DNA of 36,524 nt from a virus. Taxonomy: Duplodnaviria; Heunggongvirae; Uroviricota; Caudoviricetes. Made by a program: the position numbers and the translations under genes. The notes under the pieces were generated by a model. That model was given only the letters and a program-made list of their open reading frames with translations. It made no database searches and was not told the DNA's origin. Of the stretch, positions 23,122 through 26,380 are shown one piece after another (positions within the stretch are counted from its first letter, which is position 1; the number at the start of each line of letters is the position of its first letter). The stretch lies in the IMG/VR virus record IMGVR_UViG_2778261068_000005; one strand, written 5' to 3'.

Positions 23122-24539
23122 GCACAAAATTTTATACCCTGCTGACGGATATTGGCGCGGCGAAACTTGCCAGCGCCGCCGCGCTCGGTGTGCCGCTAAA
23201 AATTACCCATATGGCGGTGGGCGATGGCGGCGGAGCATTGCCGACGCCGGACGCAAAGCAGACTGCACTGGTAAATGAGAAACGCCGGGCTGCGCTGAAT
23301 ATGCTCTATATCGACCCGCAGAACAGCAGCCAGATTATTGCTGAACAGGTGATCCCTGAAAACGAGGGCGGTTGGTGGATACGTGAAGTGGGCCTGTTTG
23401 ATGAGTCAGGGGCATTGATTGCCGTGGGCAACTGCCCGGAAAGCTATAAGCCGCAACTGGCTGAAGGCAGCGGGCGCACCCAGACCGTGCGCATGGTGCT
23501 GATTACCAGCAGCACGGACAATATCACCTTGAAAATCGATCCTGCCATAGTGCTGGCAACCCGCAAGTATGTGGATGACAAGGCACTGGAGCTGAAGGTG
23601 TACGTGGATGATCTGATGGCAAAACACCTTGCCGCACCAGATCCACATTCACAGTATGCGCCAAAAGCCAGCCCAACATTTACCGGAACCCCCAAAGCGC
23701 CAACGCCAGCGGCGGGGAATAATACCACGCAACTTGCGACCACCGCGTTTGTTCAGGCGGCACTGAAGGCCGTTATTAATGGTGCGCCAGCCACGCTGGA
23801 CACGCTGAAAGAAATAGCCGCAGCCATAAACAATGATCCGAAATTCAGCACCACCATTAACAATGCGCTGGCACTGAAAGCGCCGCTGTCGAGTCCGGCA
23901 CTTACCGGAACGCCAACAGCACCTACTGCGGCACAGTCGGTCAACAATACACAGATTGCCACCACGGCTTTTGTGAAATCGGCGATTGCAGCAATGGTAG
24001 GCTCTGCACCTGCTGCACTGGATACACTGAACGAACTGGCGGCGGCGCTGGGGAATGATCCGAACTTTGCCACGACAATGCTTAATGCGCTGGCAGGTAA
24101 ACAACCGCTGGACAATACGCTGACTAATTTGAGTGGAAAGGATGTAGCTGGTCTTCTCGCATACCTTGGTTTGGGAGAAGCGGCAAAACGGAATGTAGGA
24201 ACAGGGGAAAATCAGATACCGGACATGACCTCTTTTGCCAGTGGTGATGGATGGATGAAATTACCCAACGGGAAAATCCTGCAATATGGTCGTGGTGCGA
24301 TTACGCCGACATTATCGACGCAAACAATGAGAATTACATTCAGCATCCCTTTTCCTAAAGAAGTGGACTGCGCCATGCTTACCCATTCTGGTGATGGTGG
24401 TGCGCCTTTAGGCGCTGGACGGGGATTCGTGATGACTGCAGAAGGTCCAACACTAACCGGTTTTAATTCCGCTTACAGAACTGCATCAACCAGCTCCACA
24501 GTATCGATGAATTACAGTTGGTGGGCTGTTGGTGAGTAA
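23118..24539 (+). CDS. H: Tail fibre protein H (constant N-terminal part fused to the currently expressed variable C-terminus)
   Basis: 473 aa; tandem ~60-aa fibre repeats ([12 protein letters not shown] / [12 protein letters not shown]); C-terminal part lies inside the invertible segment. Confidence 0.9.
24166..24199. repeat. Left inverted repeat (34 bp) of the invertible tail-fibre segment; recombination site inside H
   Basis: TTGGTTTGGGAGAAGCGGCAAAACGGAATGTAGG is perfectly repeated in inverse orientation at 25713-25746. Confidence 0.85.
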
Positions 24540-24550
24540 TTTTATTCAGG

Positions 24551-25003
24551 GTGATTTATATGAACGAATATGTTTATAGCGCAAGGCATAATGCTTTTTT
24601 CCCTGTGGATATGATTGATAAATATAAATCAGAGGGATGGGATTTATCAGACGCAAAGGAAGTAAATCAAAATATTATCAGTGAGTTTATGGCTGAACCG
24701 CCACAAGGAAAAATCCGTATTGCCGGAGATGATGGGCTGCCTGCGTGGGCAGATATTCCTCCACCCACGTATGAAGAGCTTATTGAAATTACTGAATCAG
24801 AAAAACAGCTACTAATTAACCAGGCTAACGAATACATGAACAGTAAGCAATGGCCTGGCAAAGCAGCTATTGGTCGTCTGAAAGGTGAGGAACTGGCGCA
24901 ATATAATTTGTGGCTGGATTACCTGGACGCACTGGAACTGGTGGATACCTCCAGTGCTCCAGATATTGAATGGCCTACACCTCCGGTAACTCAGGCCAGC
25001 TAA
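24551..25003 (+). CDS. G: Tail fibre assembly protein (G/Tfa), current orientation
   Basis: 150 aa after H; C-terminus (PDIEWPTPP) related to that of the inverted copy (PEISWPELP). Confidence 0.8.
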   Translation: MIYMNEYVYSARHNAFFPVDMIDKYKSEGWDLSDAKEVNQNIISEFMAEPPQGKIRIAGDDGLPAWADIPPPTYEELIEITESEKQLLINQANEYMNSKQWPGKAAIGRLKGEELAQYNLWLDYLDALELVDTSSAPDIEWPTPPVTQAS

Positions 25004-25370
25004 TCTCAGGAGCCGTCGAAGTGTCGACGGCTTTTACTTCTTTTTTGTAGTCCATCCAGGCAGATAGTTTTTCTTTATCTGTACTGCTGATATCACCAAG
25101 CATTAATTCCACCCGCCAGTCAGCTGTGACATTATCGGCATGAGCAAGTAACTGCATTCGCTGATTTTCAGCACGTGCGACATAATCAATCGCCGGAGAT
25201 TTCAGTACCGGTAAACCATTTTCATCTGACGTGATTAATTTACCCCCTTCCTGCTGTCCGGCAATTAATTCATTGTATAAGTCTGTACTTATCTCAACAA
25301 TGTCAGCAGGCATGTCGCTGTTTATACCATCAAAGAAAAAACCATTAGTCGATTTTGAGAAATAAATCAT
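24975..25370 (-). CDS. Alternative tail fibre assembly protein (G'), inverted orientation
   Basis: Convergent with G; likely start MIYFSKSTNGFFFDG; conserved Tfa C-terminus. Confidence 0.75.
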   Translation of the reverse strand: MIYFSKSTNGFFFDGINSDMPADIVEISTDLYNELIAGQQEGGKLITSDENGLPVLKSPAIDYVARAENQRMQLLAHADNVTADWRVELMLGDISSTDKEKLSAWMDYKKEVKAVDTSTAPEISWPELPEV

Positions 25371-25378
25371 AGATATAC

Positions 25379-25712
25379 CTATACACCGATTGCTACCCAA
25401 AAACAGGACCTTTCATATTTGACAATTTCTCCCTGAGATATACCGCCAACAATTATATAGAACTGTGATTTGCTGATATCAGAACAGTTCGCTATGCCCA
25501 TTGCAGATATACCAGCCACCGACGTTGTATGTGGCACAGCCAACAGCGCAAGTGAACGATTTGGGAATGTTACCGGGTAAGTCACCGTATAGTTTGATGC
25601 TCCACTGACAATACCCCACTGAATAATCAGACCTGAAGGAAGTTTTTGAAAACCCGTTGATGAAAGTGAACTGGCAAACGCCGCCATATCCGGAATTTGG
25701 TTTTGCCCGTTA
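25379..25712 (-). other. Alternative tail-fibre C-terminal cassette (H variable part'), promoterless; would fuse to H after inversion
   Basis: Minus-strand translation [20 protein letters not shown] parallels [21 protein letters not shown] at the repeat, then diverges. Confidence 0.75.
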
Positions 25713-25746
25713 CCTACATTCCGTTTTGCCGCTTCTCCCAAACCAA
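25713..25746. repeat. Right inverted repeat (34 bp) of the invertible segment
   Basis: Exact reverse complement of 24166-24199. Confidence 0.85.
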
Positions 25747-25813
25747 CGTTTATGAAAATGCAGAGATAATGGCTAACTGGCATCATCCCCGGTTTTTATT
25801 CAGGGGGATGATC

Positions 25814-26380
25814 ATGCTTATTGGCTATGTACGCGTGTCAACAAATGACCAGAACACCGATTTGCAACGTAATGCACTGAACTGCGCGGGATGTGAGCGG
25901 ATTTTTGAGGACAAAATCAGTGGCACAAAGTCCGACAGACCAGGGCTGAAAAAACTGCTCAGGACACTAACGGCAGGAGACACTCTGGTTGTCTGGAAGC
26001 TGGACAGGTTGGGGCGCAGTATGCGGCATCTTGTTACGCTGATAGAAGAGTTGCGCCAGCGTGGTGTGAATTTCCGAAGCCTGACTGACAGTATTGATAC
26101 CAGCACCCCAATGGGCCGTTTCTTTTTTCATGTCATGGGTGCCCTGGCTGAAATGGAACGCGAACTGATAGTTGAACGTACCAGGGCGGGGCTGGCTGCA
26201 GCTCGCGCCAAAGGCAGAGTAGGTGGACGCCGTCCTAAGTTGACCACAGAACAGTGGGCACAGATTGGACGCTTACTCGAGGCCGGAGAATCAAGACAGC
26301 GTATTGCACTGATTTTTGATGTGGGTGTTTCCACAATTTATAGAAAATTTCCGGCAAATAAGAGCAATGAATCCCCCTGA
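25814..26380 (+). CDS. Serine-recombinase DNA invertase (Gin/Hin/Cin/Pin family)
   Basis: MLIGYVRVSTNDQNTDLQ with catalytic Ser; GDTLVVWKLDRLGRS; C-terminal HTH; directly abuts the right inverted repeat. Confidence 0.9.
   Translation: MLIGYVRVSTNDQNTDLQRNALNCAGCERIFEDKISGTKSDRPGLKKLLRTLTAGDTLVVWKLDRLGRSMRHLVTLIEELRQRGVNFRSLTDSIDTSTPMGRFFFHVMGALAEMERELIVERTRAGLAAARAKGRVGGRRPKLTTEQWAQIGRLLEAGESRQRIALIFDVGVSTIYRKFPANKSNESP

Follow-up and report, generated by a model that had tools for sequence, protein, structure and literature searches.

The tail-fibre locus of this P2-like (Peduoviridae, Fels-2/Cartapus-type) E. coli prophage is very probably a functioning two-state host-range switch, in which a serine invertase turns over a 1.6-kb segment carrying two alternative fibre tips. 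Its recombination sites, the in-frame gene fusions, an intact enzyme and the occurrence of both orientations among natural genomes are established here. The architecture itself is not new, as tail-fibre switches of this kind have already been annotated and published in P2-like phages.

Prophage context

An earlier note, made from the sequence alone, had placed the locus in a P2-like prophage, and comparison with annotated genomes bears this out. Along the window (the whole 36,524-nucleotide stretch analysed), identity is 96–97% to a prophage in which a P2-family capsid gene, GpE, late control D and ogr/Delta are annotated. The Peduoviridae phage Cartapus matches the region at 97%, and a Tail_P2_I domain was identified within the window (Pfam, 1.5e-54). 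The hallmark genes of P2 and their order (Q P O N M L ... V W J I H G ... FI FII E T U D ogr) were recovered, and the prophage appears complete, lacking none of the P2 genes for structure or lysis. The inversion module sits between the tail-fibre genes and the tail sheath gene FI (26523–27695, plus strand; Pfam Phage_sheath_1), the conserved gene on the right that delimits the H/G-to-FI hotspot. The module thus occupies the Z/fun-type interval, as the earlier note had proposed, and invertases are frequent in the Z/fun hotspot of P2 phages (bioRxiv 2024.10.15.618418).

Inverted repeats and recombination sites

Perfect 34-bp inverted repeats, a serine invertase gene starting 68 bp past the right repeat and an intervening segment of ~1.6 kb had all been reported for this locus, and each of these descriptions stands. 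The left arm (24166–24199), which comprises the inner half-site and the conserved junction codons, and the right arm (25713–25746) are exact reverse complements, the segment measures 1,581 bp from arm outer end to arm outer end, and the invertase ATG at 25814 lies 68 bp beyond position 25746. The arms are embedded in a longer 89-nt inverted repeat of 81% identity (24154–24242 and 25670–25758), which is the longest inverted repeat of the whole window, while the number of perfect 34-nt inverted pairs expected by chance in 36.5 kb is ~2e-12.

The 34-bp repeat starts precisely at the core dinucleotide of two imperfectly palindromic 26-bp recombination sites. The left site (24154–24179, plus strand; TTCTCGCATACC-TT-GGTTTGGGAGAA), whose alignment with the cixL/cixR sites annotated in P1 and with the Mu G-segment boundaries was made by eye, has its crossover dinucleotide TT at 24166–24167 and codes for A-Y-L-G-L-G-E of H; in natural relatives the inversion breakpoint likewise begins at 24166. 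The right site (25733–25758, plus strand; TTCTCCCAAACC-AA-CGTTTATGAAAA) has its crossover AA at 25745–25746. Each site therefore has the core TT when read on its own strand, the two are in inverted orientation, and their half-sites match cix/gix. The inner half-site common to both, GGTTTGGGAGAA, has matches in P1 (GGTTTAAGAGAA) and Mu (GGTTTACAGGAA), and the fibre-gene reading frame at the sites (x-L-G-L-x-E) is the same in the window phage, in Mu (S) and in P1 (S). The outer half of the right site carries a G instead of the usual C beside the core (AAACG-TT). A third recombination site, such as would form a shufflon of the kind described in one EPEC prophage, was ruled out, with just two inner half-site matches at ≤2 mismatches in the window.

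The same plus/minus site pair was present in 55 of 80 related viral contigs, between H and FI, where it encloses variable cassettes in segments of 1.1–3.5 kb (nearly all 1.1–2.0 kb). Across the related viral contigs L008–L087, the right-hand inner half-site begins 81 nt before the invertase ATG in most loci, at position 3920 when the ATG is placed at 4001, and 80 or 79 nt before it in a few. The cassettes are clearly modular and exchanged between lineages; for example, the 1.58-kb cassette pair recurs at 99–100% identity beside an invertase only 79% identical at the nucleotide level. In contig L073, the left boundary is lost at the contig end, and near-100% identity runs 24 nt beyond the core before falling, so that site-specific and homologous exchange are indistinguishable there. 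The particular pairing of cassettes A and B in the window was found in only some genomes.

Alternative tail-fibre tips and their chaperones

The H gene (23118–24539, plus strand) encodes a Phage_tail_fib N-terminus and a Gp53-like_C tip (Pfam). Its constant N-terminal part, the equivalent of Mu Sc (23118–24165, plus strand; Phage_tail_fib, 7.6e-65), keeps its strand in alignments with relatives, whichever orientation they carry. The variable tip A, equivalent to Sv and the tip now in frame (24166–24539, plus strand; ~124 aa; Gp53-like_C, 2.3e-11), has 95.6% identity to its counterpart in phage pro483 and is followed by tfa (24560–25003, plus strand; Caudo_TAP, 1.1e-30), encoding its 147-aa chaperone and annotated in relatives as a 444-nt tail fiber assembly protein. 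Directly after tfa lies an intrinsic terminator-like hairpin with a 12-bp stem and a T tract (25008–25045, plus strand), antisense within the tfa' coding sequence. The minus strand carries the half that is silent in the window orientation, namely tip B, equivalent to Sv' (25379–25746; Gp53-like_C, 1.7e-15) and 99% identical to the silent tip of Cartapus, and tfa' (24975–25370; Caudo_TAP, 1.8e-24), encoding the 131-aa chaperone for tip B. The two chaperone genes overlap by 29 bp at the 3' end of tfa; tfa' is 26% identical to tfa, and its C-terminal half is 40–42% identical to U' of Mu and P1. This Pfam content agrees with the earlier reading of an H C-terminus and tfa on one strand and an alternative C-terminus and tfa' on the other.

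Both arrangements give in-frame fusions, of 473 aa with tip A and, after inversion, of 471 aa (H') with tip B joined to 23118–24165; annotations of E. coli S21 and F1267 include the fused 1,416-nt tip-B gene. The two tips part ways after ~25 aa. The silent tip has an upstream ATG-initiated ORF extension (start 25786), which is annotated by PGAP as a stand-alone gp53-like gene. The suggestion that receptor specificity might be predicted by comparing the variable C-termini with Mu S/S' and the P1 fibres proved a dead end. For both tips, BLASTP found no likeness to Mu or P1 S and S' (E > 0.2), tblastn against 50,697 phage records gave no Mu or P1 match, and PDB sequence searches yielded no characterised homologue, the only matches being the AP22 gp53-type fragment 4MTM (E 7e-5) and a collar fibre. 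As the tips lack detectable similarity to those of Mu and P1, their receptor specificity cannot be inferred from these phages.

Both orientations in natural genomes

The flipped allele was constructed in silico and compared with natural E. coli genomes, giving end-to-end, one-piece matches to E. coli chromosomes at 99.8% (S21, H14), 97.3%, 97.0% and 94.0% identity, and the window orientation is present in 8 other E. coli genomes. At ≥80% coverage, 29 genomes carried the window orientation and 12 the flipped one. The breakpoints of the natural flips map to the repeat. The related isolates F637 and F1267 have flanks that are 99.9% identical and segments in opposite orientations, with both fused H genes intact, and the Combat13F7 assembly contains both orientations, its chromosome and a redundant 45-kb contig being 99.8% identical save for the inversion. 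The earlier note had held that a single orientation in all data, coupled with a damaged invertase, would speak against a switch; this refutation fails, since near-identical natural prophages occur in both orientations. Judged from their genomes, the segment does invert in these close relatives.

Invertase and predicted enhancer

The 188-aa serine DNA invertase (25814–26380, plus strand) belongs to the Gin/Cin/Hin family, with Resolvase (PF00239, 2.6e-53) and HTH_7 (PF02796, 1.4e-15) domains, a full-length match to the Gin structures 3UJ3/4M6F (E 1e-92 for 3UJ3), and identities of 73.4% to Gin and 77.4% to Cin. The nucleophilic S9 sits in YVRVSTNDQ, and the enzyme retains Y5, R7, S9, R42, D64, R65 and R68 together with wild-type H106 and M114. 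Also present are K46, K47, R50, Q150, R153 and L154, the set that distinguishes Fis/enhancer-dependent invertases, in Gin numbering, which is offset from Hin numbering by one residue. The corresponding Q-x-x-R-L and K-[KR]-x-x-[KR] patterns are visible in the alignment with Gin and Cin as well. In Hin, the residues unique to Fis/enhancer-dependent invertases are K47, K/R48, K/R51, Q151, R154 and L155 (PMC3798978).

A predicted Fis-dependent recombinational enhancer (25832–25903) lies inside the invertase gene at the position equivalent to the annotated P1 cin enhancer, to which it is identical at 56/72 nt (78%), versus 71% gene-wide. It contains candidate G-N13-C Fis cores at 25835–25849 and 25884–25898, with centres 49 bp apart, and may be bound by Fis. 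Synonymous-codon identity of the invertase gene is higher at nt 1–54 and 73–108, with a less conserved spacer between; raised synonymous conservation at the 5' end of the gene could also stem from translation-initiation constraints. Between the right site and the ATG, a simple consensus scan detected no sigma-70-like promoter for the invertase. GATAAT at 25763–25768 was considered and rejected, as it has no usable -35 element and is not conserved in L073.

Proposed mechanism

From these features we infer Fis dependence, the logic of expression and a difference in host range between the two tips. Invertase dimers would bind the two inverted 26-bp cix/gix-type sites, one within H and the other 55 bp upstream of the invertase gene, and Fis, bound to the putative enhancer at the 5' end of that gene, would promote their synapsis. 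The enzyme would then cut at the central TT, turn the half-sites through 180 degrees and religate them, inverting the 1,581 bp. As the crossover would fall in frame, at codons L-G of H, the constant 349-aa N-terminus would continue either into tip A, with tfa downstream, or into tip B, with tfa' downstream. The expressed cassette would be the only one facing the late V-W-J-I-H transcript, and a lysogenic culture would yield mixed particles with two receptor specificities.

Relation to known inversion systems

The likeness to the Mu G segment and the P1 C segment drawn in the earlier note is upheld by the Mu gene order, by gix/cix-homologous sites in the same frame and by an invertase that is 73–77% identical. 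The Mu G segment and Gin share with the window the order and strands of the genes, Sc-[Sv-U / U'-Sv']-invertase, in which the invertase is read outwards from the segment, as well as a 34-bp inverted repeat with the 26-bp site inside it and the same codon frame (L-G-L-x-E). The Mu invertase is 73% identical, and U' is 42% identical to tfa' over the C-terminal half. In contrast, the Mu segment is ~3.06 kb long, versus 1.58 kb here, and has the core dinucleotide TC rather than TT; the window's tips, short Gp53-like_C domains, show no detectable similarity to Mu Sv/Sv', and its host phage is P2-like, not Mu-like. The P1 C segment is served by Cin, the closest characterised invertase (77%), and has the same core TT, an inner half-site matching at 10/12 positions and an annotated intragenic enhancer that is 78% identical at the equivalent position. 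However, cin is located at the opposite side of a 4.2-kb segment with long inverted repeats and is read towards it, and the P1 tips are unrelated.

Closer in backbone are Cartapus (LF82 prophage 4; Peduoviridae, Elveevirus), pro483 and 500465-1, which share the phage backbone (97% identity over 84% of the region). The annotated module is also the same, comprising a tail fiber gene, a pair of tail fiber assembly genes, another tail fiber fragment and an invertase, the last entered as 'DNA-invertase, Mu phage Gin invertase homolog', although the A cassette of Cartapus is unlike that of the window (84% coverage, 420-nt tfa). Cartapus has been described as closely similar to Fels-2 (PMC9928086). 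By their descriptions, Salmonella Fels-2 and the P2-like prophages of EPEC E2348/69 are also alike in having an invertase beside the tail-fibre genes that flips their C-termini. In Fels-2 the tail-fibre inversion adjoins fin (STM2702) and was deduced from LT2 versus LT7 (PMC7953296), while in EPEC whole-genome sequencing detected inversion in two P2-like prophages, and all four variants of a three-repeat locus were validated by PCR (PMC4272514). That EPEC locus, with its three repeats, is a four-state shufflon, whereas the window has only two sites. Finally, the e14 P segment and Pin of E. coli K-12 comprise a 1.8-kb segment, inverted by a Gin-family invertase, that holds two tail-fibre C-termini together with tfa genes, but e14 is a defective lambdoid element, for which an anti-phage effect at the level of the lysogen has been reported: inversion of the P segment (PinQ) creates StfE2, which blocks T2 adsorption (PMC12529663).

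Alternative explanations

The switch might be a frozen relic in this particular prophage, with the invertase unexpressed or the right site too degenerate for the segment still to flip. The lack of a promoter-like site upstream of the invertase in the simple scan and the deviant base beside the core in the right outer half-site are consistent with such a relic, which we nevertheless regard as unlikely. The invertase is encoded by an unbroken ORF in which every catalytic and Fis-contact residue is kept, the right-hand site and its spacing are conserved across dozens of contigs, and relatives that are 94–99.8% identical and have the same sites occur in both orientations, even in one assembly. The repeat could alternatively be the by-product of a duplicated tail-fibre cassette gained through recombination, next to an unrelated recombinase and with no programmed inversion. 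The swapping of modular cassettes between lineages (the 99–100% pair beside a 79% invertase) would fit such an origin, but the repeat begins at the core dinucleotide of two cix/gix-homologous sites, natural flips break within the repeat, and the recombinase, closely homologous to Gin and Cin, keeps a near-constant distance of 79–81 nt from the site. The natural flipped alleles, their breakpoints in the repeat and the two-orientation Combat13F7 assembly refute this origin in practice, leaving it a negligible chance.

It is also very improbable that the main selected role of inversion lies in the lysogen, where it would create or expose a tip protein acting at the host surface, for example by blocking the adsorption of other phages, as StfE2 from the homologous e14 P segment does with T2 (PMC12529663). 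The ATG-initiated extension at 25786, called by PGAP as a gene of its own, always accompanies the silent tip and would suit such a role. However, this stand-alone ORF has no predicted promoter, H belongs to the late operon, in which lysogens should show no expression, the provision of a separate chaperone for each tip fits virion fibres, and the prophage retains its full set of structural and lysis genes. There is a slim chance that the host-range switch adds a lysogen-level role or an orientation-dependent feedback to its main function. If so, free gp53-like protein made from the silent tip could mask a surface receptor in the manner of e14 StfE2. In the window orientation alone, the strong terminator at 25008–25045 separates the invertase gene from the late H transcript, and by this placement invertase dosage, and hence the bias of flipping, could depend on the current state of the segment.

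Practical implications

The host-range switch described here is of practical value only and opens no new biological question. Annotators should read the 'extra' tail-fibre fragment and the second tfa as the silent half of a switch rather than as pseudogenes. PGAP wrongly calls H partial in at least one genome with the window orientation (F637, where H translates intact), and H is flagged in two others. Flipping of the segment also explains assemblies that break or duplicate at the locus; for example, the so-called plasmid pCombat13F7-1 is a redundant contig of the chromosome, set apart from it by the flip. Phage prepared from this lysogen should accordingly be handled as a mixed population with two receptor specificities.

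Architecture of the invertible segment

The window is a complete P2-like E. coli prophage, inserted beside ybjL, that aligns at 96–97% throughout, except in two cargo hotspots, with the prophage of E. coli 1105, whose annotation includes P2-family capsid, GpE, late control D and ogr/Delta; the P2-like assignment made in an earlier note from the sequence alone is thus borne out. The 34-nt arms at 24166–24199 and 25713–25746 are, as that note had read them, exact reverse complements (chance expectation for perfect 34-nt inverted pairs, ~2e-12), and bound a segment of 1,581 bp. They are nested in an 89-nt inverted repeat (81% identity; 24154–24242 and 25670–25758), the longest of the 36.5-kb window. 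The tail-fibre gene H (23118–24539; 473 aa) joins a Pfam Phage_tail_fib N-terminus to a Gp53-like_C tip (tip A) and is followed by the chaperone gene tfa (24560–25003, + strand; Caudo_TAP). The − strand encodes an alternative Gp53-like_C tip (tip B; 25379–25746) and its chaperone tfa′ (24975–25370; Caudo_TAP). These open reading frames and Pfam matches agree with the gene content claimed for the segment, as does the ATG at 25814, 68 bp beyond the right arm, with the claimed start of the invertase gene (25814–26380; 188 aa; Pfam Resolvase and HTH_7). The FI sheath gene starts at 26523. Transcribed towards each other, tfa and tfa′ share their final 29 bp (24975–25003).

Recombination sites and invertase

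The central dinucleotide of each of two 26-bp sites marks the precise start of the perfect repeat; the sites lie at 24154–24179 (TTCTCGCATACC-TT-GGTTTGGGAGAA) and, read on the opposite strand, at 25733–25758 (TTTTCATAAACG-TT-GGTTTGGGAGAA). For comparison, P1 cixR is TTATCCAATACC-TT-GGTTTAAGAGAA; its crossover is annotated as lying between the T's. The Mu gix sequence is TTATCCAAAACC-TC-GGTTTACAGGAA. The site has the same codon phase here as in Mu S and P1 S, encoding x-L-G-L-x-E in all three, so the similarity of the sites reflects homology. Only two copies occur in the window, making this a two-state switch.

The invertase matches Gin crystal-structure sequences over residues 1–184 (E 1e-92), has 73.4% identity with Gin and 77.4% with Cin, and keeps Y5, R7, S9, R42, D64, R65 and R68, with H106 and M114 wild-type. 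Also kept are residues uniquely conserved in Fis/enhancer-dependent invertases (McLean et al., PMC3798978), namely the basic helix-B residues K46, K47 and R50 and the DNA-binding-domain patch Q-x-x-R-L (Q150, R153, L154). The equivalent of the annotated P1 cin enhancer (25832–25903) is identical to P1 at 56/72 positions (71% for the whole gene). Across eight invertase genes from five or more lineages, synonymous-codon identity was 0.64–0.78 at nt 1–54 and 0.67 at nt 73–108, dipping to 0.45 between these patches, with 0.43 in the remainder of the gene. Such a high-dip-high pattern would be expected from two Fis sites around a spacer; as translation-start constraints could contribute, we infer a predicted Fis enhancer in the 5′ part of the gene.

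Both orientations occur in nature

An inverted allele, built in silico as flank, reverse complement of 24166–25746 and flank, was searched against 5,426 complete E. coli genomes. It was recovered end to end as a single alignment in S21 and H14 (99.8%), F1267 (97.3%), 65COLEC (97.0%) and the Combat13F7 chromosome (94.0%), and eight other genomes of the set carried the window orientation; at a coverage of at least 80%, which takes in Cartapus-type cassette variants, 29 had the window orientation and 12 the flipped one. The earlier note had held that finding a single orientation in deep read data, together with an inactivating lesion in the invertase, would refute inversion; near-identical natural genomes show both orientations. 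Relative to S21, both flanks lie on the same strand and 24166–25749 on the opposite strand (99.7%), placing the breakpoints in the repeat, and the segment lies in opposite orientations in F637 and F1267, whose flanks match at 99.9%. Flipped genomes are annotated with an intact 1,416-nt H′ gene (the H N-terminus fused to tip B), then tfa′.

In Combat13F7, the 45-kb record NZ_CP019246.1, "plasmid pCombat13F7-1", is 99.8% identical to the chromosome (NZ_CP019245.1) except for a 1.58-kb inversion, and carries the chromosomal genes ybjL, grxA, nfsA, rimK and potFGHI. On these grounds the record is no plasmid but a second, redundant contig for the chromosomal locus, caused by orientation heterogeneity; both orientations were therefore present in one sequenced culture.

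RefSeq/PGAP records H in window-orientation genomes as a partial pseudogene with a separate small ORF (20119–21539 in 1105, 10119–11540 in F637, 17984–19405 in pCombat13F7-1). The full 473-aa ORF of F637 translates intact, so the flag on that strain's record is an annotation artefact; the 1105 and pCombat13F7-1 records additionally bear frameshift flags near H. In the annotation the silent tip appears as a separate gene for a "gp53-like domain-containing protein", with an ATG start outside the segment.

Consequences of the switch

Tips A and B are alike over their first ~25 residues only and diverge beyond, and the two chaperones share 26% identity. The tfa′ product matches Mu/P1 U′ at 40–42% over its C-terminal half. 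Sv/Sv′ of Mu and P1 resemble neither tip, so receptors are not predictable from the classical systems, and the comparison with Mu S/S′ and P1 fibres proposed in the earlier note yielded no receptor specificity. The gix/cix-type sites, the Gin/Cin-like enzyme and the natural occurrence of both orientations support the reading of an invertible segment with a predicted host-range role; very probably, the tail-fibre tip and its chaperone are exchanged together by in-frame inversion of the Gin/Cin type, likely dependent on Fis.

A lysogen-level or orientation-dependent regulatory role is suggested by a report on e14 PinQ/StfE2 and by a one-sided terminator, and we consider it highly improbable. A strong terminator-like hairpin (25008–25045, + strand; 12-bp stem and T tract) lies directly 3′ of tfa, antisense in tfa′, at the stretch coding for VDTSTAP; a comparable terminator was not found for the flipped state, and a weak hairpin at 25775–25794 is the sole candidate barrier. 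Late transcription could therefore reach toward the invertase gene only with tip B expressed. A TGT-N12-ACA motif of low information content (26429–26446), some 85 bp ahead of the start of FI, has the form of Ogr-activated P2 late promoters; as such a promoter, it would let the FI operon be transcribed on its own from a point past the invertase gene.

Prophage cargo

The two stretches without alignment to the 97%-identical 1105 prophage are 19583–20692 and 8729–10952. The former, where relatives have other small ORFs, encodes between P2 S and V homologues a 311-aa FRG-domain protein (19673–20608, − strand; PF08867, 6e-19) matching the PADLOC candidate defence family PDC-S15 (E 6e-31), probably anti-phage cargo in a third P2 hotspot. 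The latter lies in the old/tin hotspot, between replication gene A and the portal gene, and holds a 342-aa ORF (8798–9826, + strand) with no match in Pfam or PADLOC and a 208-aa HNH_2 endonuclease-like ORF (9883–10509, − strand), possibly an uncharacterised two-gene defence cargo; relatives carry an Old-like ATP-dependent nuclease (1105) or retron St85 (Combat13F7) there. The immunity repressor (1444–2019, − strand) has Phage_CI_repr and Phage_CI_C domains, the make-up of the CI of phage 186 and Fels-2, unlike the C-type repressor of P2. This assigns the prophage to the 186/Fels-2-like branch among P2-like phages.

Related systems and cassette exchange

The element is an ordinary member of a known, already annotated kind. 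Over 84% of its length, the H-to-FI region of the window is 97% identical to Escherichia phage Cartapus (Peduoviridae, Elveevirus), and the Cartapus record already annotates the module, including a "DNA-invertase, Mu phage Gin invertase homolog"; Cartapus is described as a close counterpart of Fels-2 (PMC9928086), for which tail-fibre inversion beside fin is described (Zaworski et al., PMC7953296). In EPEC E2348/69, whole-genome sequencing caught inversion in a pair of P2-like prophages, including a simple switch between two variants, and PCR validated all four variants of a three-repeat locus (Goldberg et al., PMC4272514). The P2 Z/fun hotspot often holds a DNA invertase with inverted neighbours (iLund4u preprint).

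Among 80 viral contigs encoding a close relative of the window invertase, 55 have the +/− pair of inner half-sites seen in the window, and the right-hand half-site, where present, begins 79–81 nt (mostly 81) upstream of the invertase ATG. Segments in related contigs span 1.1–3.5 kb (nearly all 1.1–2.0 kb), with cassettes that vary while H, invertase and FI stay conserved. One contig (L073; IMGVR_UViG_2534681938_000010, 1–2100) carries the window's exact cassette pair at 99–100% identity beside an invertase gene only 79% identical in nucleotide sequence and an FI gene only 69% identical, the high identity ending 24 nt outside the crossover core. Two further contigs (L071, L084) likewise have window cassettes (94–100%, L073 included) beside ~79% invertase and ~69% FI genes. 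Near-identical cassettes beside diverged neighbours indicate recent swapping of whole invertible cassettes among diverged P2-like lineages.
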